Positions 1,867 through 38,951 of a stretch of 64,000 nt of DNA are shown here, in pieces (position 1 is the stretch's first letter; each line of letters opens with the position of its first letter). Source of the stretch: a virus (taxonomy: Duplodnaviria > Heunggongvirae > Uroviricota > Caudoviricetes); the IMG/VR virus record IMGVR_UViG_2757320620_000001, positions 31,417 to 95,416 of that record, one strand, 5' to 3'. The position numbers were made by a program, and so were the translations under genes. The notes below the pieces were generated by a model. It worked only from the letters and a program-made list of their open reading frames with translations, searched no databases and was not told where the DNA came from.

Positions 1867-1896
1867 GGGCAGCTCTCGCGGGCTGCCCTTTTTTTT
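1867..1896 (+). terminator. rho-independent terminator (GGGCAGC-loop-GCTGCCC + T8)
   Basis: 7 bp GC stem (1867-1873 / 1882-1888) followed by TTTTTTTT (1889-1896), placed after the ligase operon and abutting the end of repC on the other strand. Confidence 0.7.
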
Positions 1897-2998
1897 ATTG
1901 CCGTCGCCTGAGCTTCTGGATCTCCTCATCAAGGTTGACCTGGCCGGCACGGATCAACCGGCACATCGCCCGGAAGTAACCGCCGAAATTCTTGATCTGC
2001 TCGGCGCCGGCAGCCGGCCGCGCCTGCATCTGGATAACCCACACAAGGGTCGCAGCAGCCGGCACCGGGCCGATCTCGCGCCTGGCCTCCTCCCAGGCCG
2101 ACGCAGACACGCCGAACGCGCCCCGCATTCGCCCGGCAGCCGCGACAAGCTCGAGGTCGTGCCGGATCTCACCCATGAACTCCATCGCATCAGGGCAAGC
2201 CATCTTCAGGTCACGCAGATCCGTCTGCCGCGCCGGCGCCTCCTCCACATTTTCATGGCTGTTGTTACAAGACTGGTCAGGGGCATATTTGTTGCTGTCT
2301 TTGTGACGGCAGTTATTGCCGGCAGAGGCGGTATAATATCTGGATTCTGCCTCCTGCCGGAGTGCTTGCCACTGCCCGCGGAAAGGGTCGGCCGATCCCG
2401 CGCTCGACCTACGCGGCGTGACGCGCACGAGCTCCAGGGCGCGCGCCGTCAGATCTTCGATGTCGACGCTCGGGTAAACCTCTGCAAGCGTTCTGAGAGC
2501 TTCCTGGGCCGAACGCCGGTGAATGGTCAGCTCGTCGAAGGCAACGCTGCGCTCGCGCTCCATTTCCTTCAGCGCCTCGAGCCTGGCGGCAAACTCCGGC
2601 CGGCGCGCAAGGAGAGGGGAGAGGTCGAAGCCGAAGGCCCGGATGATCTGCCCGGCCGGCGAGCGCTGCGCAAACCGTTTGCCGTTCGGCGAATCCTTGG
2701 AGACGATGACGCCCTCTTCAATCAGCCGGGCGATCGCAAACCGAATGGACCGCTCCGGAATGCCGGTGCGCTCGCCGATGAACTCGTTCGACGGCCAGAC
2801 AAGGATTCGACCCTCGACCGGCTCGCCATTATAGACGCCGCAAAGCTGGTCGAGCACGAAGCGCGCCGACGCCGGCAGCCGAAGGACTCGAGCTGCCATC
2901 CTGGCTGTGTCGAAGAGGTCTTGCTTTTCAAGGCTATATGGGTCTTGGAGGGCCGGTGCTGGCCGCAGACTGCGCCACCCCGATGACTGCGCTGACAT
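1895..2998 (-). CDS. repC: RepC-like plasmid replication initiator (repABC-type RepC family)
   Basis: 367 aa minus-strand ORF. The N-terminal winged-helix region ...WPSNEFIGERTGIPERSIRFAIARLIEEGVIVSKDSPNGKRF... matches the conserved core of alpha-proteobacterial RepC as I recall it. The overlapping + strand ORF 1898..2986 is an antisense artefact. Confidence 0.6.
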   Translation of the reverse strand: MSAQSSGWRSLRPAPALQDPYSLEKQDLFDTARMAARVLRLPASARFVLDQLCGVYNGEPVEGRILVWPSNEFIGERTGIPERSIRFAIARLIEEGVIVSKDSPNGKRFAQRSPAGQIIRAFGFDLSPLLARRPEFAARLEALKEMERERSVAFDELTIHRRSAQEALRTLAEVYPSVDIEDLTARALELVRVTPRRSSAGSADPFRGQWQALRQEAESRYYTASAGNNCRHKDSNKYAPDQSCNNSHENVEEAPARQTDLRDLKMACPDAMEFMGEIRHDLELVAAAGRMRGAFGVSASAWEEARREIGPVPAAATLVWVIQMQARPAAGAEQIKNFGGYFRAMCRLIRAGQVNLDEEIQKLRRRQ

Positions 2999-3053
2999 TG
3001 ATTTCCCTTGCTTTTCAAGGGCAAAGCTTCGCCAGACACTTCGAAAAGAAATG

Positions 3054-3168
3054 TTGACAAATCAGCGGTGATTCGGGATAACCAAGGTGTGAAGCGAGGC
3101 GATCCAAAGTCGCTGAGTTAATTTCAAAGGCTCTGGGATTGCCGTCCTGGAGCCTTTTGCTTTGCCGA
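3054..3168 (+). ncRNA. candidate counter-transcribed (antisense) RNA across the repC leader: promoter-like TTGACA-N17-GATAAC plus a terminator hairpin
   Basis: TTGACA at 3054-3059, a GATAAC -10-like hexamer 17 bp downstream, and the hairpin GGCTC...GAGCC (3129-3133 / 3150-3154) followed by TTTTGCTTTG. All of this is antisense to the intergenic leader between the RHH gene and repC, the same architecture as the ctRNA of repABC replicons. Confidence 0.3.
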
Positions 3169-3170
3169 GT

Positions 3171-3377
3171 TTAGTTTCCTTTGCTCAATTCGAATTCCTT
3201 GATCGCTCGCGCAATCAGATCCGACCGGTTTTTGAACTGGCCCGCCGACATCATGTCGCCGAGTTTCGTCTGTAATTCCTGATCAAGCCAGACGGTGATC
3301 TGGCTTTCGCCGGCAGCCTCGCGTCGTTCCCGATACCTGGCCGCGGCACGCGCGTTAGCATTTCCTTCAGCGTTCAT
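3171..3377 (-). CDS. ribbon-helix-helix (CopG/Arc/MetJ-like) DNA-binding protein
   Basis: 68 aa. The pattern ITVWLDQELQTKLGDMM...NRSDLIARAIKEF is a typical beta-strand-helix-helix signature. It lies immediately upstream of repC and in the same orientation, so an operon is likely. Confidence 0.5.
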   Translation of the reverse strand: MNAEGNANARAAARYRERREAAGESQITVWLDQELQTKLGDMMSAGQFKNRSDLIARAIKEFELSKGN

Positions 3378-3776
3378 GGCTTAGAGACTCAGTTGACCGT
3401 GTCGATTACCAGTGATGCCACGATTCGACAGATGGTAAAACCCCAGTGATTTTCTCGCGCTTTGGTTACACAAAATTAACCTGCGCTCGCAAAAGTCGCA
3501 TAAGGTGGCTTATGGAACTTGCTGTCAACTCCCCAGATTTCACCTATTGAAAATTTTCTTTTCGCACCGTTTGCCCTCGAATCCTTGGTTTCGGGTGCGG
3601 CAAAATGGAATTGACTGCATTTTCTGAATCAATCGGTATTGACTTACAGGTTGAAACTTTGCCAAAAGAAATCACTGCAGCCCAACACCGATGTGCTATT
3701 TACTACAGCAGAAAACAAGAAAACGCTGTTAGTGACAAGTAAAACAGAGGTCTAGGAAGAAGGGTTATAAATTAAA
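3378..3776. promoter_or_regulatory. AT-rich divergent control region between the minus-strand RHH-repC unit and the + strand gene block
   Basis: About 400 bp with no convincing ORF and GC clearly below the window average. It contains TTGACT/TCAAT inverted elements (3611-3650) and the TTGACTTACAGG box also seen at 19146 and 38587. Confidence 0.4.
3626..3650. promoter_or_regulatory. motif variant AATCAA-TCGGTA-TTGACTTACAGG
   Basis: Inverted TCAAT/ATTGA halves with a longer spacer, in the divergent control region. Confidence 0.3.
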
Positions 3777-4178
3777 ATGTCCACTACTTATGTTCGTCCC
3801 TACGCTAACACGAAGGTTGCGCGTTTTCTCGACAAGCACATTGACCAGGTGGTCAACCGATCCCACCGCGAAATCGCTCAGGCGGCCGGCTGGACCCAGT
3901 CGAACATGGTCACGATGATCAAGAAGGGCGACGCCAAGTTGCCGCTCGATCGTGTTGCCGCGCTCGCCCGTGCGATTGACGTGGATCCGCTCTTTCTCTT
4001 CCGGATGGCCCTCGAGCAGTTCATGCCAGAGGATGCCGAAACCGCGCGGATGCTCGATTTCATCTGCACCGAAAACGAAGTCGAAATCCTCGGCGTGATC
4101 CGCGAGGCTTCCGGCAACAGCGATCCGAAGATCAACGATCGGCAGCGTGCTGCCGTTACCGAGGCCTTCGCGAAATAA
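3777..4178 (+). CDS. putative HTH (XRE/Cro-like) DNA-binding protein
   Basis: 133 aa. The segment HREIAQAAGWTQSNMVTMIKKGDAKLP looks like helix-turn-helix. It is the first gene of the + strand block, divergent from the RHH-repC unit. Confidence 0.45.
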   Translation: MSTTYVRPYANTKVARFLDKHIDQVVNRSHREIAQAAGWTQSNMVTMIKKGDAKLPLDRVAALARAIDVDPLFLFRMALEQFMPEDAETARMLDFICTENEVEILGVIREASGNSDPKINDRQRAAVTEAFAK

Positions 4179-4570: not shown

Positions 4571-7081
4571 ATGAACAATGACATTGTGATCCTGCGCGAA
4601 GCGATCAAGAAGATCGTGCCGATGCTTGCTGGCAAAGGCCTGACCGTGACGCAAATGGGCACACAAGCCTATGTTCAGCCGCACCCCGTCACCGGTCTGC
4701 CCTGGCGCGTGAATATCCCTCTCCTGCCCGACAACGCCGAGCCGGAGTTTGTGTTCGCGATCCAGGGCTTCATCGACCATGAGGTCGCCCACGTCCTCTT
4801 CACCGACTTCCTGTTCAAGGCGCGCGACAAGTCGAAGCGCCTGCACAATTTGCATAACATCGTGGAAGACACGATGATCGAGCGGCTGATGAGCAACGAG
4901 TTCCCCGGCTCGAAGCGCAACATCTCCAAGCTCCGCGAATACTTCCTGCGCAACGTCACCGCGGCCGCGATCGCAAAGGCGCGCTCGAAGGAAGAAGAGT
5001 TCGGCTACCTGGTCGTCGTCTTGATGCGGGCGCTCGCCGGCCACGTCGAGTTCCAGGAATTCATGGACGACAACAATTACTGGGAGCATGAGCTGGTCAA
5101 GCCGTTCATGCAGCGCTTCCCGAAGGCGTCGCAAGACAAGATGCCGCTGCTTCAGACGACCGAGCAGACCTATGACATCGCGGTCGAGATCGAAGCCATT
5201 CTCTACCCGCCACCGCCGCCCGCCCCGCCGCAGCCGCCCGAGCCTGAAGAGCAGGACGATCAGGATCAGGGTGAAGGTTCTGATGACCAGGAGCCGTCGG
5301 AAGGCGAAGACGACAAGGATCATTCCGACGAACAGCAGACCGGCGACGGCGAAGGTGACGGTGAGCGCGAGCACACCGAAGACAACGACGATGCGTCGGG
5401 CGGTGAAGGCGAAAGCGAAGAGGAGAAGGATGACGATGCCGGCGACGGTGAAGACGAAGGTTCCGGCGCAGGCGAAGAAAAAGCCGACGATGAGGAAGGC
5501 GATGACGTCGCTCCCGGAACGAGCGCAGATGATGGCGACGACGATTCGGCTGACAAAGAAGATGCCAGCGACGAAGACAGCGATGGCTCGGCCGGTGAGC
5601 AGGACGACGCTGACGACGAGCCCCAGACCGGTAAGAGCTCCAGCTCGCCCAAAGAAGACGGCGATGATGATGCCGATGATCAGGGTGGTTCCGGCAACGG
5701 CGACGACGATGAGCATGACCAGGGCGAGGAAGGTTCTGATGAGCATGCTGACGCTGGGCAGGAAGCAGCGGATTCTGATGCAGAGGGTGAAGACCAGCCC
5801 GCTGAGATGGAAGATGGCGCCGATGAAAGCGGCGAGGCAGATCAGTCAGATGATGGCGAAAGCGGAAGCGACGCTGGAGGCTCTGGTTCCGATGATCAGT
5901 CCGAAGAAGATGGCGAAGACGACGAGGCGGGCGGCAACCCTCTGAACAACGTTGCCATCGAGGACGCCGGCAGCGATGAAGACGGTGAAGATGGCGAACC
6001 TGCCGAGGATGACGACACGCCGAGCGTCGAACTCGCCGGCATCGGCTACGATCCGAACCAGAACCCCTTCTCCGCAATGAGCGACGATGAGCTTGACGAG
6101 AAGGATATCTCGTCGGCGCTGGTCAAGATCATCGTCAAGGAAGCGATCTCGGCCTGCCGGGCTGCCGACTATTCGGTCTTCACCCGCGACTACGACATTA
6201 TCAAGCCGCTCGAGGTGCCGGAAAACTTCAGCAGCAAATATATCGTGGAGCTCGAGGAGCAGACCCGCGCGCTGACCGGCGTGATGCAGAAGGATATCGA
6301 GCGCATGATGGCCGCCCAGGCGCGCGTCTTCAATGTCGCCGGTCAACGCTCCGGTCGCCTCAACAGCGCCGGCCTGCATCGCCTGACGGCCGGCGACGCG
6401 CGCGTGTTCTCGCGCCGTGAGGAGATCCGCGCGAAAGATACGGCTGTGGCGCTTCTGTCCGACTGCTCCGGCTCGATGAAGGGTCGCCCAATGGCAACGG
6501 CGCTGTCGGCCGCATACGCGCTTGCCTCGGTGCTTGAGCGCTGCAATATCCCCTCCGAGTGCATGGGCTTCACGACCGCGCAATCATACGGCAGCGGCAG
6601 CGTCATGTCGGAAGACCGGGTCCGGCAGTTCAGCGCCGACCTTATGAATGAGACGCAGAAGTCCGGCGTGCGCTTCTCGCGCACCGTGCCGATCTACATG
6701 CCGATCTTCAAGGACTTCAACGAGCGCATCAACGCCGACGTCAAGAAGCGCTTCGCCTATCAGCGCAAGAACCAGCCCTTCATGGGCGCAAACGTCGACG
6801 GCGAGTCCCTCGAATACGCTGCGATGCGCCTGGCGCGCCGCAAGGAGAAGCGCAAGGTGATCATCGTTCTGTCCGACGGCTTTCCTGCCGGCGCCAGGAA
6901 CGACGACGAGCACCTGAAATACATGGTCGAGCGCCTGACCGGCATGGGTTACGACCTCGTCGGTATCGGCATCGAGTCCGACGCCGTCGAGCGCTTCTAC
7001 GACAACCATATCGTCCTGCAGTCGGTCGACGAGCTGCCGCGCGCCGTTATGGGCGAGCTGAAGAAAATCCTCATGAAATGA
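4571..7081 (+). CDS. CobT-like von Willebrand factor A domain protein with a roughly 270 aa Asp/Glu/Gly/Ser-rich linker
   Basis: N-terminal region resembles aerobic cobaltochelatase CobT. The C-terminal VWA/MIDAS motif D-x-S-x-S is present as LLSDCSGSMKG. A long acidic low-complexity insert occupies 5200-6060. Confidence 0.75.
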   Translation: MNNDIVILREAIKKIVPMLAGKGLTVTQMGTQAYVQPHPVTGLPWRVNIPLLPDNAEPEFVFAIQGFIDHEVAHVLFTDFLFKARDKSKRLHNLHNIVEDTMIERLMSNEFPGSKRNISKLREYFLRNVTAAAIAKARSKEEEFGYLVVVLMRALAGHVEFQEFMDDNNYWEHELVKPFMQRFPKASQDKMPLLQTTEQTYDIAVEIEAILYPPPPPAPPQPPEPEEQDDQDQGEGSDDQEPSEGEDDKDHSDEQQTGDGEGDGEREHTEDNDDASGGEGESEEEKDDDAGDGEDEGSGAGEEKADDEEGDDVAPGTSADDGDDDSADKEDASDEDSDGSAGEQDDADDEPQTGKSSSSPKEDGDDDADDQGGSGNGDDDEHDQGEEGSDEHADAGQEAADSDAEGEDQPAEMEDGADESGEADQSDDGESGSDAGGSGSDDQSEEDGEDDEAGGNPLNNVAIEDAGSDEDGEDGEPAEDDDTPSVELAGIGYDPNQNPFSAMSDDELDEKDISSALVKIIVKEAISACRAADYSVFTRDYDIIKPLEVPENFSSKYIVELEEQTRALTGVMQKDIERMMAAQARVFNVAGQRSGRLNSAGLHRLTAGDARVFSRREEIRAKDTAVALLSDCSGSMKGRPMATALSAAYALASVLERCNIPSECMGFTTAQSYGSGSVMSEDRVRQFSADLMNETQKSGVRFSRTVPIYMPIFKDFNERINADVKKRFAYQRKNQPFMGANVDGESLEYAAMRLARRKEKRKVIIVLSDGFPAGARNDDEHLKYMVERLTGMGYDLVGIGIESDAVERFYDNHIVLQSVDELPRAVMGELKKILMK

Positions 7082-9838: not shown

Positions 9839-12800
9839 CTTCTCACTCGGCGAAAGCATTCTCAACGCCGGGAAGCTGGTCGATATCGCCAAAGAGCAGG
9901 GCGCCAAAGCCGTCGCGATCACCGACACCATGAGCGTGACCGGCATGATCGACTTCTCCAACCGCGCCAAGAAGGCTGACGTCAAGCCGATCATCGGCGT
10001 GCGTCTGCGCCTGTCGGAAGATCCGGCCTGGCGTCCGGCCAAGGGTCAGAAGAAGAAGCACATGCCGCCCGAGCACTTCATCACCGCCTACGTGCTGACG
10101 GAGACCGGTCTGAAGGCGATCTACCGGCTGCTCAGCAAGGCCAATGCCGGCGACACCGAGGACGCGGCCGGCAACAAGGTGCCTGGGCGTTTCTACTATA
10201 CGGCCAAGCTCGGCTATGACGATCTCTGGGAAGAGTTCGAAAAGCTAGGCGCCGGCCACCTGGCTGTTCATCTCGGCGACACGCACGGCGTCATCATGCG
10301 CCCCGACGCCGAAGCGATCTGCGCCAAGCTCGTCGATTATCTGCATCCCGATTACGTGTTTGCGCCGCTGATCCCTGTCGATACGCCATATTTCGGCGCG
10401 CTCAACAAGCGCTCGCTGGATCTCGTCGCGCGTTTCAAGGCTCGCCCGCTCGTCGTGCGCCCCGCCTATTACGAGGCCGAGCAGGCTGACGCTCACGAAA
10501 TCATGTCGGCGATCTCCAACGGCAACAAGATTTCCGACGGCTGGCACAAGTCGAATTGGAATAGAGATTTCCACGTTCTGAAGGCAGCCGACCTCGGCGC
10601 TGAAGTCGTCAAGGCTGCAAAGCACGTTGCGCTGCGCGGTGTCGTCGGCGCCGGCGCTCACTTCAAGCAGGGTCTGGCAAACACCGACTGGCTGGTCGAT
10701 ACGGTCGAATACACCTGGTCGAAAGCGCCCGTCTCGCTGCCGGTCATGGCGCCGGACGAATTCGGCAAGCTGGTCGAGGAGTGCAAGCTCGGCTGGAAGG
10801 AGCGTTTCAGCCAGGAGAGCTTCGGGCACAAGCCGGCGCCGCAAGAGCTGGTCGATCTCTACAAGCCGCGCCTGGTCTATGAGCTCGAGGTGCTGAAGAA
10901 GCTGTCCTTTGCGGGCTACTTCCTTTTGGCGCAGGACGTCGTGCGCTTCGCCAAGTCGAACGGCATTCTCGTCGGCCCTGGTCGCGGTTCTGTCGGCGGC
11001 TCGCTCGTTGCGTATCTGATGGGCATTACCGATTGCGACCCGATCCGCTTCGGGCTGCTCTTTGAGCGCTTCATCAACCCTGAGCGTCTCGACCTTCCCG
11101 ACGCCGACCTCGACTTCATGTCGACACGCCGGCACGAGGTCGTCGATTACCTCATCCAGAAGTTCGGCGAGAAGCGCGTCGCCGGCGTTTCGAACTTCGG
11201 CACGCTCGCTGCTGCATCCTCGATCCGCGACGTCGGCCGCGCCTTCGAGATCCCGGAGAAGGAATATTCGATCTCCAAGCTGGTGCCGAAGAAGCACGGC
11301 GCCAACGTCAAGCTGCCGGTGTGCCGCGAGGAAGTCGCCGAGATTGACGAGTTCGCCGGCAAGTATCCCGGCCACTGGGATATCATGGAGCGCATCGAAG
11401 GCACGATCCGCAATATGAGCCAGCACGCGTCCGGCATCGTCGTCGGTGGCGTCGATCTCGAGGAGCGCGCCGTCATCGAGCGCCGCAAAGGCGACAGCGC
11501 CGTCGTCTGCTGGGATAAGCGCATCGTCGAGGATCAAGGCCTGGTCAAGCTCGATATCCTCGGCCTATCCACGCTCGATCTGATCGCGCTGGTGCTGCGC
11601 TACATCTTCGAGCGCCACGCCAAGAAGATCAATTTGATGAAGGTGCCGCTCGACGACCAGGCGGTGCTGAAGAATTTCGCCGCAGGGCTCACCACCGGCG
11701 TCTTCCAGTTCGAAAGCGCTGGCATGCGCAAGCTGCTGCGCGAGCTTGGCGCCGACGGCACCATCACCTTCGACGATATCACCGCGGCGACCGCCCTCTA
11801 CCGCCCTGGCCCGATGGAGTCAGGCATGATGGACAGCTACTATCGGCGCAAGCAGGGCAACGAGACGGTCGATTACGACCACCCGCTGATGGAAGCGGTG
11901 CTGAAGGACACTTTCGGCGTCATCGTCTACCAGGAGCAGGTCATGAAGATCTCGCAGGTGATCTGCGGATATTCCGGCGCCGACGCTGACAAGCTCCGCA
12001 AGATCATGGGTAAGAAATTGCCCGAGGAGATGAAAAAGGAGCGCGGCAAGTTCTGCGACGGCGCGGTCAAGACGATCGGCTGCACCGAGGATTGGGCAGG
12101 CGCGCTGTTCGACAAGATCGAAGGCTTCGCCGGCTACGGCTTCAACAAGAGCCACTCGGTCGAATATTCGCTGATCTCCTGGCAGTCGATGTGGTTGAAG
12201 ACGCACTATCCGGTCGAGTTCTTCGCCGCAGCGCTGACGCAGATGGACGAGGACAAACTGCCGGCGCTGCTGCGCGATGCAGGGCGCTTTGGCATCGACG
12301 TCAACATGCCCGACATCAATATCTCCACCGATCGCTTCGAAATCGTCACCGACGTCCGGCTGGTCATGCCATTCCAGCGCATCAAGGGAATCTCGGGCAC
12401 GACCACCACCGCGATCCTGGCCGCGCGCACAGCCGTCGACGAGAAGACAGGCAAGCCGGTCGGTCCCTTCCAGAATAAGGCCGACTTCCTGGCGCGGGTC
12501 AACAAGACCAGGTGCAACAAGCGGCACCAGGAGAACCTCGATCTCGTCGGCGCATTCTCGCGCATCGAGCCTGGGCAGCTCGGCCCGAACGACCCAAGCC
12601 GCATCCGCGACCAGCTCGAGCTCCTGCCCGGCCTGGTGACGGCGACCGTGCCGGTGCCTCGATCGATGGAGAACGACAAGGCGACAAAGGAAGCGATCGC
12701 CGAGGTGATCGACGATTACAAGGCGGATCTGTCGGAAGACGGCATTATGGTGCAGCCGCATTTCGGCAAGCAAGCGCAGTTCATGATCATCACGGATGCG

Positions 12801-31191: not shown

Positions 31192-31458
31192 GTGTTTCTC
31201 AGAAAGACCATTCTCGCCGGCGCCGCGGTTGTTAGCGTCGCCCTCCTGTCCTCCTGCCGCGTCGATCCCCAGGATGCACAGCGCATCCTCGCCGACAGCG
31301 GCATGAAGGATATCGAGCTCAAGGGCGGCTCGTGGTTCGGCTGCTCGAAGGGTGATACCTACAACACCGAATTCGTCGCAACCGGCCCGACCGGCCGGCG
31401 CGTCGAGGGCGTTATCTGCGGTGGCCTCCTGAAGGCCTACACCGTTCGCCTCTACTAA
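31192..31458 (+). CDS. lipoprotein (signal peptide with LLSSC lipobox)
   Basis: MFLRKTILAGAAVVSVALLSSC followed by a polar mature region. GTG start after an AAGGAGC RBS. Confidence 0.45.
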   Translation: MFLRKTILAGAAVVSVALLSSCRVDPQDAQRILADSGMKDIELKGGSWFGCSKGDTYNTEFVATGPTGRRVEGVICGGLLKAYTVRLY

Positions 31459-31469
31459 AGGAGGCGCTC

Positions 31470-31586
31470 ATGGTGCTGACCGTCCTCGGCGGCCTCTGCG
31501 CCGCAATCATCGTTTCGCTGGGCGTCATCAAGGCGCTCGAACTCATCCGCAATCGTGTGGATAACTCAAAAGGAGAAAAGAAATAA
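31470..31586 (+). CDS. unlisted small membrane protein (38 aa; MVLTVLGGLCAAIIVSLGVIKALELIRNRVDNSKGEKK)
   Basis: AAGGAGG RBS 5 nt upstream of the ATG. Its stop overlaps the SPFH gene ATG (TAATG). Confidence 0.4.
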   Translation: MVLTVLGGLCAAIIVSLGVIKALELIRNRVDNSKGEKK

Positions 31587-32440
31587 TGGGTAAGCTTGGT
31601 CTTATCATCGGCGGGATTGTCGCCGTTCTCGTGCTGTCGGTTCTCGGCGGCTCATTCTACACTGTCGATGAAGGCGAACGCGCCGTTGTCGTCAGCCAGG
31701 GCAAGATCGCCAACGTCGCCGGCCCCGGCTTCCACTGGAAGAAGCCTTTCCTCGACGATGCGCACGTCATCAGCGTCCGCACCCAGGCGCTCGAGTTCCC
31801 GGAAGAGCCCGTCTATACGGCCGATCGGCAGACTGCCACCGTGACCTTCTCCGTCAACTATGCGGCTGTGCCGGCCGACAAGGAGGTCGAGGCGCTCTAT
31901 CGCGACTTCCAGACCCTCGAAGGGCTCGAGACCCGAGCGTTGAAGCGGCAGATCCGCGAGCAGATCAAGAATGTCTTCGGCACGTTCACCGCTGACACGG
32001 CAATCCGGGAGCGCGGGCGTCTCAACACGGAAGTGGCTCGAGCGGTCGCTGACCTCGGCGTCGGCCTGGTCAAGGTCGAAGGCGTGAATATCGAGAACAT
32101 CAATTTCTCCGACGCAGTTGAGGCTGCGGCCGAACAGCGCGCCCAGGCTGAAATGAGGGTCCAGACGGAAAAACAAAACCTCGAGCGCGAAAAGGTTCTC
32201 GCCCAAACGAAGGTCACGCAGGCCCAGGCGGATGCCGATAGTCAGCTTGCCGTCGCAAAAGCCGGCGCCGAAGCCACCCGTCTTGCCGGTGAAGCTGAAG
32301 CAGCGGCGATTAAGGCCAAGTCGGAAGCTTTGCAGCAGTCGCCGAACCTGGTCGAACTGACGAAGGCCGAGCGCTGGGATGGTAAACTGCCCACGAGCTT
32401 CATTCCGGGCAGCGCAACTCCCTTTCTCAGCATCAAATAA
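31586..32440 (+). CDS. SPFH/band-7 (stomatin/prohibitin/HflKC-like) membrane protein
   Basis: N-terminal TM helix, then YTVDEGERAVVVSQGKI...GPGFHWKKPF...V..RTQ, the SPFH signature. A coiled-coil A/E/Q-rich C-terminus follows. Confidence 0.8.
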   Translation: MGKLGLIIGGIVAVLVLSVLGGSFYTVDEGERAVVVSQGKIANVAGPGFHWKKPFLDDAHVISVRTQALEFPEEPVYTADRQTATVTFSVNYAAVPADKEVEALYRDFQTLEGLETRALKRQIREQIKNVFGTFTADTAIRERGRLNTEVARAVADLGVGLVKVEGVNIENINFSDAVEAAAEQRAQAEMRVQTEKQNLEREKVLAQTKVTQAQADADSQLAVAKAGAEATRLAGEAEAAAIKAKSEALQQSPNLVELTKAERWDGKLPTSFIPGSATPFLSIK

Positions 32441-32468
32441 GCGCTAGCTTCCCGATTATTTTTAATTA

Positions 32469-32508
32469 GAGTGCTCAGTAAATATTGATTGAGCACTCTT
32501 TTTGTTTT
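32469..32508 (+). terminator. rho-independent terminator whose loop contains the recurrent motif (GAGTGCTCA-GTAAATATTGAT-TGAGCACTC + TTTTTGTTTT)
   Basis: Perfect 9 bp stem (32469-32477 / 32490-32498) followed by a T-run, 29 bp after the SPFH gene stop. Confidence 0.6.
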
Positions 32509-32519
32509 ATGGAGCATGT

Positions 32520-32727
32520 CATGGACAGCGTCGAGAACCTCATACTCAAGATCCACATCGATCACTATGTCGCGCAGGAAGCAGGCGTTGGCTACTACTA
32601 CGCCATCCACCCGTCGACCGAGCTCTACGGCCCGTTCGGAACTTCTGACGCGGCAAAGGATGCAGCGATCGAGGTGATCACGCAGTCCGTTGCCGAGGCT
32701 GCAATCCACGCCCTCTTTGGAGAATAA
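32520..32727 (+). CDS. hypothetical protein (68 aa)
   Basis: ATG 32520 with a GGAG RBS. The ORF-track start at 32485 would lie inside the terminator hairpin, so I trimmed it. Confidence 0.35.
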
Positions 32728-32728
32728 A

Positions 32729-33196
32729 ATGCGCATCAACTTCAAGAAACTCCACCCCGACGCCGTCATGCCGAGCTACGGCACACCCCACGCTGCCGGC
32801 GCCGACCTGGTCGCAAACCTCAAGGCGACCTTCGAGAATGAACCCATCGGCGATGACTACGGGTATGTCCTCTCGCCGGGCGAGAGCAAGTTGTTCAAGA
32901 CCGGCATCGCCGTCGAAATGCTAACCGGCATGTGGGCCGAGGTCCGCGGCCGCTCCGGGCTCGCCTACAAGAACGGCATTGCGATCCTCGGCGGTGTGAT
33001 CGACAGCGATTACCGCGGTGACATCGGCGTGATCCTGCACAACACGTCGGATAAGCCCTTCATCGTCAAGCACGGCGAGCGCATCGCCCAGCTCATCTTC
33101 GCGACCTATATTCCGGTGAATTTCATCGAGAAGAAGGAGCTGAGCAACACGGGCCGCGGCGAAAAAGGCTTCGGCTCGACTGGCATGGCCGCCTGA
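32729..33196 (+). CDS. dut: dUTP diphosphatase (trimeric dUTPase)
   Basis: Motifs AAGADL, GxRSGLA (RGRSGLAYKNGI), GVIDSDYRGDIGVIL and a C-terminal RGEKGFGSTG. Start at 32729 after a GGAGAATAAA RBS. Confidence 0.8.
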   Translation: MRINFKKLHPDAVMPSYGTPHAAGADLVANLKATFENEPIGDDYGYVLSPGESKLFKTGIAVEMLTGMWAEVRGRSGLAYKNGIAILGGVIDSDYRGDIGVILHNTSDKPFIVKHGERIAQLIFATYIPVNFIEKKELSNTGRGEKGFGSTGMAA

Positions 33197-33816
33197 TGCT
33201 GTATTGTTGCACCGGCACCCATCGCTCCGGCAAGACGACGACTGCGAAACTCCTTGCTGAACAGCTCGGCATCGAGTTTCTCGACTCCTCGTTCGACGTC
33301 GCCAAGAAGTTCGGCTTTAACCCGGTCGGCGAAATGAGCCTCACCGATCGCATGGCAATGCAGATCCTCGTTCTCGAGGATCACATCGAAAAACTAAAGG
33401 CAGCGCCGCGCCCGCTGATCACTGATCGCTGCCCGCTCGACTACTTCGCCTACACGCTGGCGCAGTTCGGCATGACCTCGCACAAGCAGACCGACGAGAA
33501 GACGATCCTGGCAGCGCATGCGTTCGCTGAGAAGTGCCTCGAGGAGACGAAGACCTATTACGACATGGTCTTCATCATGGATCCGCTCAAGGTCTACGAG
33601 GTCGATCTGACCAAAGCCACGCCGACGGCCAATCCCGCCTTCCAGCTGCACATACACGCCCTCATCCACGGCGCCGTGTCGCAGATCCACCAGGAGGTCA
33701 ACTACGCGATGGTGCCGTTTATGCCGGTCCAGGATCGCGTGGATTTCATCGCGCAAAACATCGTGGAGCGCATGAACGATATCGACGACCTTCGGAAGTC
33801 GGAAGGCATGCACTGA
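33196..33816 (+). CDS. P-loop (deoxy)nucleoside monophosphate kinase, T4 gp1-like
   Basis: Walker A CCTGTHRSGKTTTAKLL resembles T4 dNMP kinase GVKRSGKDTTA. TGATG coupling to dut. Confidence 0.5.
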   Translation: MLYCCTGTHRSGKTTTAKLLAEQLGIEFLDSSFDVAKKFGFNPVGEMSLTDRMAMQILVLEDHIEKLKAAPRPLITDRCPLDYFAYTLAQFGMTSHKQTDEKTILAAHAFAEKCLEETKTYYDMVFIMDPLKVYEVDLTKATPTANPAFQLHIHALIHGAVSQIHQEVNYAMVPFMPVQDRVDFIAQNIVERMNDIDDLRKSEGMH

Positions 33817-33858
33817 CTTCCTGATATAGCCACGCGCATCCCGTGTGCGCGTGTGCTA

Positions 33859-33880
33859 TTCAGTAAATATTGATTGATCG
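33859..33880. promoter_or_regulatory. motif copy (TTCAGTAAATATTGATTGATCG), upstream of the rIIA-like gene
   Basis: Preceded by the hairpin CACGCGCA/TGCGCGTG (33829-33853). Confidence 0.5.
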
Positions 33881-33909
33881 CAAACGATCGACACGAAAGG
33901 AAGACAGAA

Positions 33910-36273
33910 ATGGAAGTTTCGCAGGTAGCGGCGCTCGACACCCACGTAATCATCGGTGGTGGTGCGCCCGAGGCGTTCGGCATGGCCGATACCGCTGAAT
34001 TTTACGACGTCCTCTCCGACAACATCTACCGCGACAAGAAGCGCGCGGCGATGCGCGAGACCATTTGCAACGCCTGGGATGCGCATATCATGGTCGGTAA
34101 GACCGATGTGCCGGTCGAGATCACCGTCACCGACACCGAGATCGTCATTAAGGATTTCGGCCCAGGTATTCCGGATCATCTGATGCGGCCGATCTACTGC
34201 GTCTATGGCGCCTCGACGAAGGTGAAAGACGGCAAGCAGACAGGCGGTTTCGGTCTTGGCTCCAAATCGCCCTTCGCTGTCGGCGACCACTTCAACGTCG
34301 TCAACGAGCACGCCGGCTTCAAGACCGTATATGCCCTGTCGCGCGGTGGCGCCGCAACGCAAGGCAAGCCCGACATGCGCCCGATGGTGCGCGTGCCGTC
34401 CGTCAACACCGGCATTACCGTCACGATCCCGCTGAAGAACGTCAAAGATCGCCCCGAGTTCGAGGCCCATATCCGCGCAGTCGTGCGCCAGGGCGGCATG
34501 CTTGCCAATCTCAACGGTCAGCCGCTTTTCCGCAACGATTACACCGAGGCGCGCAAGACGGAATATTGCCTCATTCCGCAGACCGGTCTCTGGGAAGGCA
34601 AGGTCTATGTGCTTTACGGCACGGTGATCTATCCGCTGACAACCACCGACGAAGACTTGCTGGCGCTCGCCCACAAGGCCGGAAGCTATACCTGCCGCGA
34701 ATCCATTCTGCTGCTCTGCGCACCGCCGAACTCGATCGGTGTCACGCCCAGCCGCGAGTCCCTCTCCTATTCCGACACAACGACCGAGACGCTGACGCGC
34801 CTTTTGCAGAAGGCCTGTCGGCAGATCAACGCGGCGATCCCAGCCGCTATCAAGCGCGTTGCCCACGCCAGGCTCGAGAGATGGGGTGTAAAGGCGTTCG
34901 ATCGCAGCTTTGACGCCGAACGTCGAACCTGCGGCATTCTCTCGACGCCGGCGATGATCGCTGACCACGCGGTCGCCACCAACTCCGCTCACATGTCGGC
35001 CAAGCAGGCTAGACGCACGATGCTCAAGGTCGCCGCACCGATGTTCCGCGACGACCGGCGCTGGTATCGGCGTGCTGTTCACGAGCATTACTCCAACGAC
35101 GAGCTTAATTTCAGGCGCACTTCGATGCCGGCCATTCGCATTGCCTCGCAGATGGGCTTGCTGAAGGATCTGATGCTGTTCGATCTGCATCGCAACCGCC
35201 TGGCCCTGCCTGGCCCGAAGACCCAGCCGATCGCCAAATATCACCGGATCGGCCACGTTCACGCCGTTCTTTGTGTGGCGCGCAATCTGCGCGATCTGCG
35301 CCCGACGCTGAATGCCACCTCCGGAAGGTTCCGCAACGAGGAGCATAGCTACGTTCCCGGCGTCGTGATGCGTCAATGGACGGAAAAGAACCTCAAGGCC
35401 CTGCGCGAACTCTGCTCGCGGTTCAAGATTGAGCTGGTCGAGTTCGATTACGAGGAAGAGAAGGAGCGTCGCGCGAGCCAGGCGAAGCGGGTGAAGACCG
35501 AGGAGAAATACCTGACCCTCGAGGACTACATCAAAAGCGGCTATCGCGCCGACCCCACCTGCAATGAGCCGGCCTTCTACATGATGACCTGGCAGCGCGA
35601 CGAGATCCCGCGCACGCCGTTCGACACTCATCTTGTGAAGGCGATCGTCGAGAAGTTCCCCAACACGGCGCTGATCACGACGAAAGCCCAGGAGGAGAAA
35701 TTCAAGAAGCTCGGTATCCGCAACCTGGCCGAAGTCGCGGCCGCACGCCTGGTCGAGCTGACGAAGCTGCGCGAGGTCGTCTACGGCGAGCTCATCCGGC
35801 ACGACCGCATCGCCGCAGACAAAGACCGCTTCTATCACGGCTCCCTTGCCGACGCCGTGCTGAAGCTCGCCAAACTCGACGTGCGTATCGCCAAGATGCT
35901 CTTCCCGGACAGGTCGACGCCGGGCGAGGCCCACAGGGAGGCCGCACTGCTTTGGGACTTCCTCGTCAACGCCCAGTCGCTCTCCGAGGAGACTACAGCG
36001 ATCGTCAAAGCGGCGAAGAAGGGATTGCGCCGAGCCTGCGCCGAATTGTTCAAGCCGCTCACTGCGGATGAAGTGGACCGGCGCTTTGCATACCTCGAAG
36101 TTCTGCGTGGCGCCAACATCATCGGCTCCATGAACTACAGATCAACCTCGAAGGAGGCTGAGAACTTGATCGAGGTGATCAAGATTCTCCAGCGCCGCAG
36201 CAGTAAATCAAAATTGATTGCACACAACACCCAGGCCGCGAAGGTCACAACCGCCCACAAGGAGGCAGCATGA
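33910..36273 (+). CDS. rIIA: rIIA-like protein with an N-terminal GHKL (HATPase_c) ATPase domain
   Basis: Bergerat-fold motifs: N box ETICNAWDA, G1 box KDFGPGIP, G2 box TGGFGLGSKS. About 787 aa, immediately followed by and coupled (ATGA) to a clear rIIB homolog. Confidence 0.65.
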   Translation: MEVSQVAALDTHVIIGGGAPEAFGMADTAEFYDVLSDNIYRDKKRAAMRETICNAWDAHIMVGKTDVPVEITVTDTEIVIKDFGPGIPDHLMRPIYCVYGASTKVKDGKQTGGFGLGSKSPFAVGDHFNVVNEHAGFKTVYALSRGGAATQGKPDMRPMVRVPSVNTGITVTIPLKNVKDRPEFEAHIRAVVRQGGMLANLNGQPLFRNDYTEARKTEYCLIPQTGLWEGKVYVLYGTVIYPLTTTDEDLLALAHKAGSYTCRESILLLCAPPNSIGVTPSRESLSYSDTTTETLTRLLQKACRQINAAIPAAIKRVAHARLERWGVKAFDRSFDAERRTCGILSTPAMIADHAVATNSAHMSAKQARRTMLKVAAPMFRDDRRWYRRAVHEHYSNDELNFRRTSMPAIRIASQMGLLKDLMLFDLHRNRLALPGPKTQPIAKYHRIGHVHAVLCVARNLRDLRPTLNATSGRFRNEEHSYVPGVVMRQWTEKNLKALRELCSRFKIELVEFDYEEEKERRASQAKRVKTEEKYLTLEDYIKSGYRADPTCNEPAFYMMTWQRDEIPRTPFDTHLVKAIVEKFPNTALITTKAQEEKFKKLGIRNLAEVAAARLVELTKLREVVYGELIRHDRIAADKDRFYHGSLADAVLKLAKLDVRIAKMLFPDRSTPGEAHREAALLWDFLVNAQSLSEETTAIVKAAKKGLRRACAELFKPLTADEVDRRFAYLEVLRGANIIGSMNYRSTSKEAENLIEVIKILQRRSSKSKLIAHNTQAAKVTTAHKEAA
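36201..36223. promoter_or_regulatory. motif copy (CAGTAAATCAAAATTGATTGCAC) inside the 3' end of the rIIA-like CDS, upstream of rIIB
   Basis: Seen directly. Confidence 0.4.
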
Positions 36274-37745
36274 GCAAGGTCCGCATTATCAGCGCGATTG
36301 CGTCGGATTCCGGCGTCACGCTTTATCTCGAAACAGGCAATGAGCTGAACTTGAAGAAGGATTCGGCGCGCACAAAGGAGATCCTCGAGAAGACGATCGA
36401 GGCTTTGAAGCGCGGCGAGCACATGGAGATCGACACCGCCGACTTCTCGATCCACCAGACGATCGAGGAAAAGACCAACGGCGTCGTGAAGTTTGTCCGC
36501 GGGCGGTTCTCGCAACTCAAGGCGCTGTTCGGTGGCGAGGTTGAGCAGCCGAAAATGGTCACGGTCGAACTTGGTTCCGTGAAGCCAGTTCGCGCGATGC
36601 CGCGGCAGCCAGAACCGACACCGGCCGCAAAAGCTCCGGTGGCTGCTCCCGCAGTCTACGAGCCGGAAGAGCTGCACGCCGTCGTCAACAACACCGTCAT
36701 TCCCGATATCGATGCTCTGACGCCCTACATGGACGCGATCCATGCCGGCGAAGACGCCCTTGGTTTCCAGAAATTCATGGAGCGCATCGCGACCGTCGCC
36801 AACAAGCGATCGCATACGGTCAAGGAGCTTTTGAACTTCATGAGCAAGGGCGATCTGCCGATCGCCGAAGACGGTTGCATCATCGGCTACAAGGTGTTGA
36901 CGACGGCGCCTGGCAACAACGGCTTCGTCGATCGCCACTCGCGCAAGGTGCTGCAGAAGCTCGGCTCGTATGTCCAGATGGATGAAAAGCTCATCGACCC
37001 GGATCGTCGCAATGAGTGCTCGACCGGTCTGCACATCGCACGCCGAGGCTATCTGAAGGGCTTCGAAGGCAGCATCATCACCCTGGTCAAGGTCGCGCCC
37101 GAAGATGTCATTGCGGTTCCGCCTGGCGAGCCCGACAAGATGCGCGCGAAGGCATATCACATTGTCGCTGTGCTGCCCGCAGACGTCCATGCAATCCTTC
37201 GCAGCAATATGCCGATGACTGGCAACGAAAAGGCCGCGAAGCTTCTGGCTGACGTCGTGAAGGGCAATCACACGCCTGTCCTCGAGATCGTCAATATCGG
37301 CGCAGCGAAGGGCGGCAACGTCACCATCACGCCGGTCGATGGCGCCAAGAAGATCCGCCGCGCGGTTGTCGGCACGTCCGGCGAAGCCAAAGCGCTTGAT
37401 GATCGCCCCGTGGCGCCTGGAGAAGAGACGGTTCCGGTCTCGCTCAAGGAGCTTCGCGCTAAGGCCGCTGATCTTGATATCAGCAAGGCTGCAGCTGCCG
37501 GCGACATGAGCGCTGCGATCAACGCGACGCCGCAGAAAATGAGCCGCATCAAGAAGACCGAGCCGAAGCCCACGCCGGTCGTTGTTGATCACGCAGCCTC
37601 GGCGGCTCCCGCCGACAAGAAGGCGCAGGCGCTCATCTTGCACGGCGAAGGCAAGTCGAACCGCGCGATCGAGGCCGAGCTGCACATCTGCCGCAAGACC
37701 CTCAAGAAGCTCTTCGACAAGCATGGCCTGAAGCCCAACGGCTGA
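36270..37745 (+). CDS. rIIB: rIIB-like protein
   Basis: The C-terminal half is collinear with T4 rIIB as I recall it: IAEDGCIIGYKVL corresponds to ITEDGYFYAWKVV, ECSTGLHIARRGYLKGFEGS...TLVKVAPEDVIAVP corresponds to TCSRGLHVCSKSYIRHFGSS...VKVKVHPRDVVSIP, and KMRAKAYHIV corresponds to KMRTCQYEVV. It carries an extra C-terminal HTH-like tail. Confidence 0.7.
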   Translation: MSKVRIISAIASDSGVTLYLETGNELNLKKDSARTKEILEKTIEALKRGEHMEIDTADFSIHQTIEEKTNGVVKFVRGRFSQLKALFGGEVEQPKMVTVELGSVKPVRAMPRQPEPTPAAKAPVAAPAVYEPEELHAVVNNTVIPDIDALTPYMDAIHAGEDALGFQKFMERIATVANKRSHTVKELLNFMSKGDLPIAEDGCIIGYKVLTTAPGNNGFVDRHSRKVLQKLGSYVQMDEKLIDPDRRNECSTGLHIARRGYLKGFEGSIITLVKVAPEDVIAVPPGEPDKMRAKAYHIVAVLPADVHAILRSNMPMTGNEKAAKLLADVVKGNHTPVLEIVNIGAAKGGNVTITPVDGAKKIRRAVVGTSGEAKALDDRPVAPGEETVPVSLKELRAKAADLDISKAAAAGDMSAAINATPQKMSRIKKTEPKPTPVVVDHAASAAPADKKAQALILHGEGKSNRAIEAELHICRKTLKKLFDKHGLKPNG

Positions 37746-37801
37746 TCCCAGGCGCAACGAGGGGCGACAATTGTGCCGCTCCTCAAACCCAAGAGGAAAG
37801 C

Positions 37802-37909
37802 ATGAGTAACTATCGCCGCATCGCCAGCCGTCGCCGTCGTTCGGGCACCGTTGGTATTGTCTTTCTGGCCGCTGCCGCAATTCTGCTGCTGCTCCAACAC
37901 GTTCTCTAA
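37802..37909 (+). CDS. unlisted small membrane protein (35 aa; MSNYRRIASRRRRSGTVGIVFLAAAAILLLLQHVL)
   Basis: GAGGAAAGC RBS. Arg-rich N-terminus followed by one TM helix. Below the ORF-track cutoff. Confidence 0.3.
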   Translation: MSNYRRIASRRRRSGTVGIVFLAAAAILLLLQHVL

Positions 37910-37919
37910 GGAGGCTCCA

Positions 37920-38570: not shown

Positions 38571-38571
38571 T

Positions 38572-38598
38572 TATAGTCAGTAAACATTGATTTACAGG
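38572..38598. promoter_or_regulatory. motif copy (TATAGTCAGTAAACATTGATTTACAGG) plus an AGGAG RBS
   Basis: Upstream of ORF 38607. Confidence 0.5.
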
Positions 38599-38606
38599 AG
38601 AACGAC

Positions 38607-38951
38607 ATGCAGCAGCCGCACATTGCCGAAGCGCCATCCTATCCGGTGACGATCCACATCGCCGGCGATCCGTTTAAGGCTCGCGTTGCCTGCGCAAGCT
38701 TTTGCGACAAGGTGGGGCTCTGCGTGACCGTTACCGATACCGACTATATTTACAGCTTCGGCTCTGAGGTCGGCGTTCGCGTCGGCCTCATCAATTACCC
38801 GCGCTTCCCGAAAACCGGCCCTGAAATTGAGGAGCTCGCCTACAAACTCGCGGTGCTTCTCCGCGAACAGCTCGACCAGCAGAGCTTCACCATCGAGTCT
38901 CCGGGCACAACGATGTGGTTCTCCTGGCGCGAGCAGGACGTCGCCAAGTGA
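38607..38951 (+). CDS. hypothetical protein (114 aa)
   Basis: Motif at 38572-38598 followed by an AGGAG RBS and ATG. Confidence 0.45.
   Translation: MQQPHIAEAPSYPVTIHIAGDPFKARVACASFCDKVGLCVTVTDTDYIYSFGSEVGVRVGLINYPRFPKTGPEIEELAYKLAVLLREQLDQQSFTIESPGTTMWFSWREQDVAK

Follow-up and report, generated by a model that had tools for sequence, protein, structure and literature searches.

A RepC-family replication cassette with a candidate counter-transcribed RNA and a candidate intragenic origin in Rhizobium phage RHEph10, a probable phage-plasmid

Genomic context of the repC region

The window, which is the whole stretch of 64,000 nucleotides analysed, corresponds to bases 31417-95416 of Rhizobium phage RHEph10 (JX483881), a record obtained from an isolated phage. 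The RHEph10 genome has about 115 kb and 172 annotated features, and its annotation includes a complete tailed-phage gene set (terminase, portal, capsid, tail, tape-measure and lysozyme). Many other genes encode unannotated hypothetical proteins. A first-pass annotation of the window had described two minus-strand open reading frames of 367 and 68 aa, and both were recovered with the same limits (1895..2998 and 3171..3377). Apart from these two genes, repC and the gene of a probable ribbon-helix-helix (RHH) protein, no minus-strand gene is annotated in the window; the whole 115-kb genome adds only gp154-159 and gp172 on that strand. The DnaE polymerase, ligase, gp32-like SSB, exonuclease and RecA-like protein previously attributed to this phage were all found. 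A helicase and a primase are encoded in addition to DnaE, ligase, SSB and RecA, and no second initiator besides RepC is annotated. The genes and elements at the limits of the region are the following:

1867..1888, no strand assigned: GC-rich hairpin with an A-run on one side and a T-run on the other, in the gap where gp38 (plus) and repC (minus) converge, from a terminator scan and the sequence
1895..2998, minus strand: repC, 367-aa RepC-family initiator, with the RP-C N domain at residues 23-170 and RP-C_C at residues 263-364
3171..3377, minus strand: 68-aa protein, first gene of the RHH-repC unit, with a homolog upstream of repC in every close relative
3777..4178, plus strand: divergent XRE-type HTH regulator of 133 aa, from domain search and synteny

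The hairpin at 1867..1888 is a probable bidirectional terminator shielding repC from lytic-strand transcription. The HTH gene keeps its place in all relatives that are phages or phage-plasmids, but it is not located beside the cassette in the non-phage plasmid pRlX1.

RepC and the candidate origin within its gene

The resemblance to RepC initiators proposed earlier, for which a search with the Pfam RepC profiles had been recommended, was borne out by both profiles. The 367-aa protein matched PF03428 (RP-C) with an E-value of 7.2e-39 and 133.8 bits (cutoff 24.4), residues 23-170 covering profile positions 24-173 of 175, and PF11800 (RP-C_C) with 8.4e-16 and 58.5 bits (cutoff 32.6) at residues 263-364. 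It also reached 209 bits against the NCBIfam equivalog NF040974 RepABC_RepC (cutoff 150; model positions 30-388 of 393) and matched PHROG 22671 at 1.4e-144. By these profile matches it is a true member of the RepC family, far beyond chance. The peptide quoted in the first-pass annotation, WPSNEFIGERTG...NGKRF, corresponds to residues 68-109. In GenBank this gene is gp039, labelled 'repC family' and given a shorter start (334 aa); the 367-aa start is preferred here because the N-terminus MSAQSSGWR is kept in relatives. The nearest RepC from a canonical repABC operon in the collection searched was 41% identical to that of RHEph10.

The centre of repC differs in composition from the rest of the gene, and two nested segments were delimited:

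2231..2356, no strand assigned: AT-rich centre of repC and candidate oriV, codons ~215-256
2261-2329, no strand assigned: near-invariant core of about 70 nt, codons 224-246, from the nucleotide alignment

The GC content at 2231..2356 is 0.51-0.52 versus 0.64 for the repC gene, GC3 is about 0.50 versus about 0.75, and the identity of synonymous codons reaches 0.84-0.94 in this region versus 0.55 gene-wide. A GC dip within repC is seen in all 11 relatives. This AT-rich core occupies the place equivalent to oriV of p42d, a plasmid that requires its corresponding A+T-rich stretch (nt 658-822) and whose RepC is active only in cis (PMC3155836). The suggestion that oriV lies inside repC is supported by an AT-rich core under synonymous constraint, and 2231..2356 is a candidate oriV on which RepC would probably act in cis. 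The constraint on the core could also derive in part from recombination that homogenises this segment, or from an RNA element instead of an origin. An overlapping ORF as its cause is not favoured, the antisense ORFs being usual high-GC artefacts. BLASTN with the core gave matches in the same RepC clade only (12 plasmids), so that its sequence is clade-specific and not a general repC motif.

Leader and candidate counter-transcribed RNA of repC

The spacer between the RHH gene and repC contains conserved elements on both strands, those of the leader being taken from an alignment of 9 relatives:

3005..3054, minus strand: repC leader, of putative function
3005-3021, minus strand: leader hairpin with the SD
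3019-3033, minus strand: invariant leader block GGCGAAGCTTTGCCC
3036-3054, minus strand: covarying leader hairpin
3054..3082, plus strand: promoter-like element of the candidate ctRNA (TTGACA at 3054-3059, 17 nt, GATAAC at 3077-3082)
3087..3166, plus strand: candidate ctRNA of about 80 nt, antisense to the RHH-repC spacer, from folding, covariation and a covariance model; its parts are hairpin 1 (3098-3114), a terminator hairpin (3126-3157) and a T-run to 3166

The leader hairpins lack a downstream U-run, and attenuation as known from p42d may therefore not operate here. The -35/-10-like pair recurs at the corresponding position of all 12 relatives, and the block around it is conserved throughout the 9 relatives aligned, five of them sharing an identical sequence. 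This promoter was missed by a sigma-70 promoter scan because the -10 hexamer GATAAC does not have the required final T. The conserved block GGTTATCCCGAATCAC was considered as a DnaA box and rejected, since distant relatives retain a -10-like hexamer there without the box.

The minimum free energy of the plus strand was -34.5 kcal/mol (z -3.3) versus -21.0 (z -1.2) for the minus strand. The terminator helix is 97.7% paired, with compensatory pairs at 6 of 13 positions, and its wobble pairs hold on the plus strand only; both promoter and terminator of the ctRNA are kept in all 12 relatives, and its two hairpins are conserved as well. A covariance model (CM R1) scored 81.6 bits at 3087..3166 and gave one full-length antisense match per locus, directly upstream of repC, out-of-sample loci included. 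Among the latter was a Microvirga repB-repC spacer in a canonical repABC operon (40.8 bits), and of the 80 loci taken from the genome collection 24 were matched. In Rfam, searched at E<=1 with the region and with eight related loci, no ctRNA family was retrieved, the sole match being a sub-threshold 'ar14' in M. oryzae. As in inc-alpha-type ctRNAs, the predicted gene lies immediately upstream of repC. Covariation and conservation therefore point to a candidate ctRNA gene between the RHH gene and repC, apparently homologous to the repB-repC spacer element; its RNA would be expressed and act on repC.

The 68-aa protein and its upstream region

The assignment of the 68-aa protein to the RHH family received moderate support. 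A profile of 9 homologs gave a weak match to the NikR RHH domain (E=0.007), in which both the strand and the 'NRSEA' helix could be aligned; a single-sequence AF2 monomer of mediocre quality (pLDDT 72) displayed an extended segment and two helices in an RHH-compatible topology; and PGAP names its homologs RHH. On the other side, the Pfam search of the protein gave no match, and Foldseek of the AF2 model versus PDB retrieved nothing significant. The 68-aa product is regarded as a probable RHH protein. Upstream of its gene, the alignment revealed conserved non-coding blocks:

3405..3528, minus strand: conserved non-coding blocks
3405-3426, minus strand: block GAATCGTGGCATCACTGGTAAT
3496-3517, minus strand: palindrome TTCCATAAG-N4-CTTATGCGA
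3523-3528, minus strand: TTGACA adjoining the palindrome

These blocks are a candidate promoter and operator of the RHH-repC unit; that the operator is bound by the RHH protein is a guess.

Partition genes, plasmid relatives and mobility of the cassette

As previously noted, repA and repB are missing from the window. The search for parAB elsewhere in the genome, which had been proposed, located a small ParA (gp155) and a ParG-like RHH protein (gp154):

102263-103179 of the record, outside the window, minus strand: ParA/ParG-like cassette gp155 and gp154

No integrase or recombinase of this kind was found in the whole RHEph10 genome, either among the 172 annotated features or in a Pfam scan of 20 unannotated proteins of at least 180 aa, and pLM21S1 also lacks an integrase according to Dziewit et al.

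In the genome-collection scan a single-RepC query matched nothing, and matches were obtained with an alignment-based query. Eleven relatives come from bacterial assemblies of at least 8 genera: six are circular plasmids of 115-119 kb, sharing RHH-repC-HTH synteny and homologs of RepC and TerL, and five further genome contigs show phage synteny. Each one is either a circular replicon in its own right or a free-standing contig, about 110-119 kb long. These 11 relatives and all 10 phages, whose records all derive from virions or plaques, carry an intact cassette at one and the same site. The sister phage B1VFA and plasmid pRlX6 share 93-94.5% identity (PMC12509600). Plasmid pLM21S1 was not inducible with mitomycin C (PMC4447125, PMC5537653), and consequently no single element of the family has yet been demonstrated as both virion and plasmid. 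Taken together, RepC, the Par cassette, the absence of integrase and the circular plasmid relatives favour the phage-plasmid lifestyle raised as a question in the first-pass annotation.

The RHH-ctRNA-repC cassette is also present in pRlX1, a 318-kb conjugative plasmid without phage genes. The cassette phylogeny is discordant with that of the phage backbone, and pRlX6 is a chimera with a crossover in the repC core. The cassette thus appears to recombine independently of the backbone. The RHH gene occupies the position of repAB, and homologs of RepA/RepB are not found at phage-type loci but beside RepCs of at most 41% identity. On the basis of pRlX1, the phylogenetic discordance and the pRlX6 chimera, it is proposed tentatively, with somewhat less than even confidence, that RHH-ctRNA-repC with its intragenic origin may be a portable minimal replicon class distinct from repABC, which siphovirus phage-plasmids and the large conjugative plasmids of rhizobia would exchange through homologous recombination. 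Crossovers would fall in the near-invariant origin core and in the promoter block of the ctRNA, and phages would thus recombine the two (incompatibility) halves of RepC, N- and C-terminal, and be able to coexist with the numerous repABC replicons of the host.

Proposed mechanism and alternative explanations

With good confidence, the region is considered the plasmid-type replicon of a phage-plasmid, a compact RHH-ctRNA-repC cassette whose orientation is opposed to that of the lytic genes. This reading draws on the observed membership in the RepC family, on synteny, on constraint at the sequence level, on covariation in the RNA and on the plasmid relatives; plasmid lysogeny is documented for the relatives only, and presumed for RHEph10 itself. 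RepC produced from the RHH-repC transcript would act, probably in cis, on the intragenic AT-rich origin (~2231-2356) and initiate theta replication of the circularised 115-kb genome. The ~80-nt antisense RNA would pair with the repC leader and lower RepC synthesis, like the inc-alpha ctRNA in repABC plasmids, and the RHH protein probably autoregulates the operon, replacing the transcriptional-repressor role of RepA/RepB in repABC. Segregation would depend on the separate ParA/ParG-like cassette outside the window and, with integrase absent, this replicon would keep the phage in the cell as a plasmid prophage of low copy number.

RepC could instead be only an origin-specific lytic initiator, recruiting the DnaB-like helicase, primase and DnaE of a strictly virulent phage. 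This would account for a genome in which helicase, primase, DnaE, ligase, SSB and RecA are encoded and yet no other initiator is annotated; the ten phage records come from virions or plaques, and no documented RHEph10 lysogen was found in the literature consulted. It is nevertheless unlikely, because ctRNA-type negative copy control and ParA/ParG are traits of low-copy maintenance that have no evident function in a lytic burst, near relatives reside in bacteria as circular plasmids (PMC12509600), and the cassette, read in the direction opposed to the lytic genes, is shielded from them by a probable terminator. RepC might also have a dual role, serving lytic replication as well as plasmid maintenance.

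The presence of the same cassette in a 318-kb conjugative plasmid without phage genes and its discordance with the backbone would also be expected of a passenger from a rhizobial plasmid that is not the replicon of the phage, either a decaying remnant or a tool for interference with repABC plasmids through RepC/ctRNA incompatibility, RepC and ctRNA being incompatibility determinants in those plasmids (PMC3155836). Such a passenger role is very improbable: conservation of an intact cassette at one position in 10 phages and 11 relatives of at least 8 genera speaks for an essential function, no other replicon is annotated close to this site in the phage-like plasmids, and the 41% identity of the closest repABC-context RepC makes incompatibility with resident repABC plasmids unlikely, as far as the collection compared, which did not comprise the host's own plasmids. 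Least probable of all, to the point of being nearly negligible, is the possibility that RHEph10 integrates like any temperate phage and that its integrase was overlooked among the many hypothetical proteins, given that none is annotated and Pfam brought out none among the 20 larger unannotated proteins, that pLM21S1 was reported without integrase (Dziewit et al.) and that every relative is either a circular replicon in its own right or a free-standing contig (~110-119 kb).

Comparison with known systems

Rhizobia carry many symbiosis-encoding repABC plasmids. The RHEph10 replicon resembles those of the repABC type (R. etli p42d, Ti plasmids) in both RP-C domains, with a score above the NCBIfam equivalog cutoff, in the AT-rich stretch inside repC where oriV of p42d maps, and in the predicted antisense ctRNA gene immediately upstream of repC, the RHEph10-type covariance model matching the Microvirga repB-repC spacer as well. 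However, RHEph10 has no repA/repB operon and carries the 68-aa RHH gene in that position, its partition functions correspond to an unlinked pair of small ParA and ParG-like proteins, and the Rfam ctRNA families do not match its ctRNA.

The closest known elements are pLM21S1 (Sinorhizobium sp. LM21), pRlX6 and the phages B1VFA, V1VFA-S and RHph_X66, all of the same size class (115-122 kb). They share with RHEph10 the ligase / repC / RHH / HTH / CobT / CobS synteny and a homologous TerL; their RepC is 68-74% identical and integrase is absent from both (PMC4447125; PMC12509600), whereas identity between backbone genes falls to 40-66%. The genome of RHEph10 is known from virions only and pLM21S1 only as a plasmid, which has nadV-nadM genes that RHEph10 lacks. 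RHEph10 had been paired with the plasmid-prophage pLM21S1 by Dziewit (2015), and a 2025 announcement describes its sister phages. The phage-plasmid idea for this family is already known from the GenBank 'repC family' label and PMC4447125, PMC7969092 and PMC12509600, with further literature on the lifestyle in PMC5537653. For this core claim the present value is confirmation; what is added is the mapping of the intragenic candidate origin, the candidate ctRNA, the RHH-ctRNA-repC anatomy replacing repAB, the apparent independent recombination and the 11 bacterial-resident relatives. The cassette, of about 1.7 kb, is small enough for direct minimal-replicon testing, and a phage persisting through the same initiator family would tie phage biology to plasmid incompatibility and gene flow in rhizobia.

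The SSU5-like phages, the Acinetobacter 'AB' group, P1 and N15 are also tailed phages kept as low-copy plasmids with plasmid Rep and Par functions. The TerL of RHEph10 is about 60% identical to AB-group terminases, and this phage was put at the edge of that community by Pfeifer et al. The N15 initiator is likewise active only in cis according to Cervantes-Rivera et al. (PMC3155836). The RepC-type replicon is not known outside Alphaproteobacteria, and P1, N15 and SSU5 use different replication systems. Unlike these, the initiator of RHEph10 is a RepC with an intragenic candidate origin and putative control by a ctRNA.

Organization of a probable plasmid replicon in the RHEph10 genome

The first 8 kb of the window showed 100% identity to Rhizobium phage RHEph10 (JX483881.1 / NC_034248, record positions 31417-39416), and the window therefore corresponds to positions 31417-95416 of that record, a 115,042-bp Caudoviricetes genome with R. 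etli CFN42 listed as host. The two opposite-strand open reading frames described in the first-pass annotation were located exactly (367 and 68 aa), and in the deposited annotation they are the only minus-strand genes from gp001 to gp153, with gp154-159 and gp172 as the only others in the genome. This region very probably constitutes the low-copy replicon of a phage-plasmid: replication would be driven by RepC from an origin within repC, control would be exerted by a counter-transcribed RNA (ctRNA) and probably also by a ribbon-helix-helix (RHH) protein, and segregation would depend on an unlinked ParA/ParG cassette. The elements considered are the following:

1895-2998, minus strand: repC, 367 aa
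2261-2329, within repC: conserved AT-rich core, candidate origin
3054-3082, plus strand: TTGACA-17 nt-GATAAC, -35/-10-like pair
3087-3166, plus strand: predicted ctRNA
3171-3377, minus strand: probable RHH gene, 68 aa
3405-3426: second conserved block upstream of the RHH gene
3496-3517: conserved palindrome TTCCATAAG-N4-CTTATGCGA
3777-4178, plus strand: divergent XRE-type HTH gene

The 367-aa protein, first described as RepC-like, matched Pfam RP-C (7.2e-39) and RP-C_C (8.4e-16), the NCBIfam equivalog RepABC_RepC (209 bits, cutoff 150) and the dedicated phage family PHROG 22671 (1.4e-144). Its GenBank product (gp039) is labeled 'putative DNA replication protein, repC family' and starts at an internal ATG 33 codons downstream (334 aa), the ATG at 2998 giving 367 aa; the region concerned is 2899-2998. 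Relatives keep the N-terminal MSAQSSGWR, which favors the longer form, and the annotated gene probably lacks its first 33 codons.

Evidence for a phage-plasmid

No partition genes were found in the window, which also lacks repA/repB, as had been noticed. Elsewhere in the genome, a 213-aa ParA-type ATPase (gp155) and a 92-aa protein with ParG/RHH_10 matches (gp154) are encoded on the minus strand (record 102263-103179, outside the window) and make up a type Ib-like partition pair.

The comparative data are stronger for the phage-plasmid reading than the HMM, partition and integrase checks. A tblastn search of PLSDB with RepC and a separate search with TerL converged on the same six circular plasmids (115.6-119.4 kb).

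Phage-like circular plasmids with both RepC and TerL matches
Pararhizobium qamdonense p5
Shinella zoogloeoides unnamed3
R. beringeri pRlX6
Sinorhizobium pLM21S1
Methylobacterium pAMS5a
M. oryzae unnamed2

In the plasmids examined the local order is alike: the ligase gene comes first, next repC with the RHH gene on one strand, and after these the divergent HTH gene and CobT/CobS on the opposite strand. A genome-collection scan (one genome per species) revealed the same synteny in five more contigs, from Ancylobacter (114 kb), Phyllobacterium (118 kb), Faunimonas (109 kb), Chelativorans and a Methylocystis MAG. CobT and CobS (a MoxR/AAA ATPase) adjoin the replication module in all relatives, CobN being absent, and the CobT-like protein of RHEph10 (4571-7081, 836 aa) contains an extremely acidic, low-complexity D/E/G-rich insert of about 250 residues.

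The phage-plasmid lifestyle, previously raised as a question, is thus supported by RepC, the Par pair, the absence of an integrase from the annotation and from the larger proteins scanned, and the circular plasmid relatives, in which the plasmid state is seen. This reading is not new, since it is already in database annotation and in the literature. pLM21S1 was described as a plasmid-like prophage with RepC-like replication, without integrase and with 83 genes common with RHEph10 (Dziewit et al. 2015, PMC4447125); RHEph10 was listed among phages with plasmid genes and its homology to pLM21S1 noted (Pfeifer et al. 2021, PMC7969092); and the sister phages B1VFA and V1VFA-S, 93-94.5% identical to pRlX6, were proposed as possible prophage-plasmids with parA, parB and repC (Gunathilake et al. 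2025, PMC12509600).

That RepC serves lytic initiation only is unlikely, since the Par genes, the ctRNA and the existence of plasmid relatives do not fit such a role well; quite possibly it acts in both the lytic and the plasmid state. Universal synteny counts against the cassette (RHH gene, ctRNA gene and repC) being a passenger or an incompatibility weapon, which is highly improbable. The chance that an integrase was overlooked is almost negligible: none is annotated among the 172 features of RHEph10, extending the earlier observation on the window, and a Pfam scan of the 20 unannotated proteins of at least 180 aa gave no integrase, resolvase or recombinase domains.

The RHEph10 TerL (11415-12689 of the fetched locus L003, outside the window) is about 60% identical to terminases of Acinetobacter baumannii plasmids of about 105-115 kb, and more distant matches bring the total to 1,038 plasmid records, the majority of them from Klebsiella, Escherichia and other enterobacteria. 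Through this likeness the rhizobial group is connected with a very large supergroup of phage-plasmids in which other replicons are used.

Candidate origin within repC

Midway along repC the GC content drops to about 0.46, and this dip, at codons ~220-248, was present in 11/11 relatives compared, even at 37-44% RepC identity. GC3 is about 0.50 in the dip versus about 0.75, and in lineage pairs identical codons are used at same-amino-acid positions with a frequency of 0.84-0.94, compared to 0.55 gene-wide. In the nucleotide alignment a core of about 70 nt (codons 224-246) is almost invariant and its flanks diverge freely. In plasmid p42d, repC itself contains the origin, within a large A+T-rich region devoid of iterons and DnaA boxes; replication is lost when silent mutations are introduced at nt 658-822, and the RepC protein functions exclusively in cis (PMC3155836). 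The phage core, at nt ~645-768 of a shorter gene and between the two Pfam domains, occupies the equivalent place. An oriV inside repC, as first suggested, is consistent with this constraint, from which we infer that the core is a candidate origin.

Candidate antisense RNA and RHH protein

The RHH-repC spacer (172 bp) contains a block, GGTTATCCCGAATCACCGCTGATTTGTCAAC, kept in 9/9 close relatives and identical in five, which carries the plus-strand -35/-10-like pair; such a pair is found at this site in 12/12 relatives, all with a GC-rich hairpin 70-100 nt further on and then a T-run abutting the RHH stop codon. The predicted fold is -34.5 kcal/mol (z -3.3) on the plus strand versus -21.0 (z -1.2) for the complement. 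Across ten aligned sequences, 97.7% pairing was seen in the terminator helix, with 6/13 pairs changed on both sides; its covariation score was equaled by none of the shuffles, and the pairing collapsed when the partners were slid. Several helix positions are U.G or G.U on the plus strand and C.A mismatches on the sense strand, so that pairing on the latter falls to 86% (helix 2) and 57% (helix 1).

A covariance model built from the ten-sequence alignment scored 81.6 bits at the RHEph10 site; in each related locus it gave exactly one full-length match, which in every case was antisense and lay shortly upstream of repC. Among sequences outside the build set, a canonical repABC operon of Microvirga terrae was matched in its repB-repC spacer (40.8 bits), where the 3' tail CCUUUUGCUUUGCC is shared and the stem shows compensatory changes. 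Further matches were to pAMS5a (33.2 bits), to a solo repC of Bosea (20 bits) and to 24/80 loci fetched from the genome collection, in repAB and RHH contexts. No Rfam match was obtained for this RNA, a candidate counterpart of inc-alpha. A sub-threshold match to the alphaproteobacterial sRNA ar14 (27.9 bits, gathering score 58.8, E=0.31) in the M. oryzae phage-like plasmid (L014 2264-2353, minus strand) coincides exactly with its candidate ctRNA. The 14-nt sequence CTTGCTTTTCAAGG, which on the repC strand is a palindrome able to form a hairpin, is present in two exact copies 87 nt apart, one shortly upstream of the repC start (3007-3020) and one within codons 22-26 (2920-2933); these are the sole copies in the 64-kb window, and the motif is present in the RHEph10/Y2_11/N1_10 lineage and absent from the X66/B1VFA lineage.

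The 68-aa protein, first described as an RHH regulator, had no Pfam match, and its single-sequence AlphaFold model (pLDDT 72; basic N-terminal helix, extended segment and two helices) retrieved nothing significant in Foldseek; in a nine-homolog profile, the strand and second helix aligned to the NikR RHH domain (E=0.007), making an RHH fold probable, not proven. The conserved palindrome and second block upstream of its gene may be a promoter and operator, and the protein would regulate its own expression. With a GC content of 0.43, the divergent RHH-HTH intergenic region (3378-3776, 399 bp) is richer in AT than any other part of the locus; it includes an 18-nt inverted repeat (3555-3572/3654-3671) and may hold the operators of a lysis-lysogeny switch.

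Cassette mobility and comparison with repABC replicons

RHH-ctRNA-repC is also present on the 318-kb conjugative plasmid pRlX1 without phage genes nearby, and the cassette is therefore considered portable and the divergent HTH gene part of the phage backbone. Relative to p5, flanking proteins are 74-77% and TerL 92% identical, against 44% for RepC and 35% for the RHH protein; relative to the X66, B1VFA and pLM21S1 group, flanks are 41-51% and RepC 68-70% identical. The pRlX6 repC (L004 5751-6897) is a chimera, 95-99% identical to B1VFA at nt 1-756 and 82-89% to the RHEph10 type at nt ~790-1060, the change from one type to the other falling in the AT-rich conserved core. The annotation of this gene shows two overlapping ORFs, an apparent frameshift, although the plasmid is maintained; either a sequencing error or a split gene might explain this. 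Because the C-terminus of RepC determines incompatibility in p42d (PMC3155836), such exchanges could reset compatibility. In the 692-kb Bosea plasmid pANAM02 (L017 2265-7070), a solo repC lies between RtcB and CHC2 zinc-finger (primase-like) genes, both also found in RHEph10-type genomes; a megaplasmid may here have absorbed the remains of a phage-plasmid.

A full-text search, in incomplete literature coverage, found no paper on repC with ribbon-helix-helix and repABC; the origin core, the ctRNA, the RHH-for-repAB substitution and the cassette recombination are new detail on a known kind of element. RepCs at most 41% identical to that of RHEph10 are found in repA-repB-repC operons, and the closer RepC clade has an RHH gene in place of repA-repB. 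The RHEph10 cassette thus differs from repABC in carrying an RHH gene where the latter has repAB, and its candidate RNA has the same position and orientation as the ctRNA inc-alpha, a down-regulator of RepC in repABC plasmids (PMC3155836).
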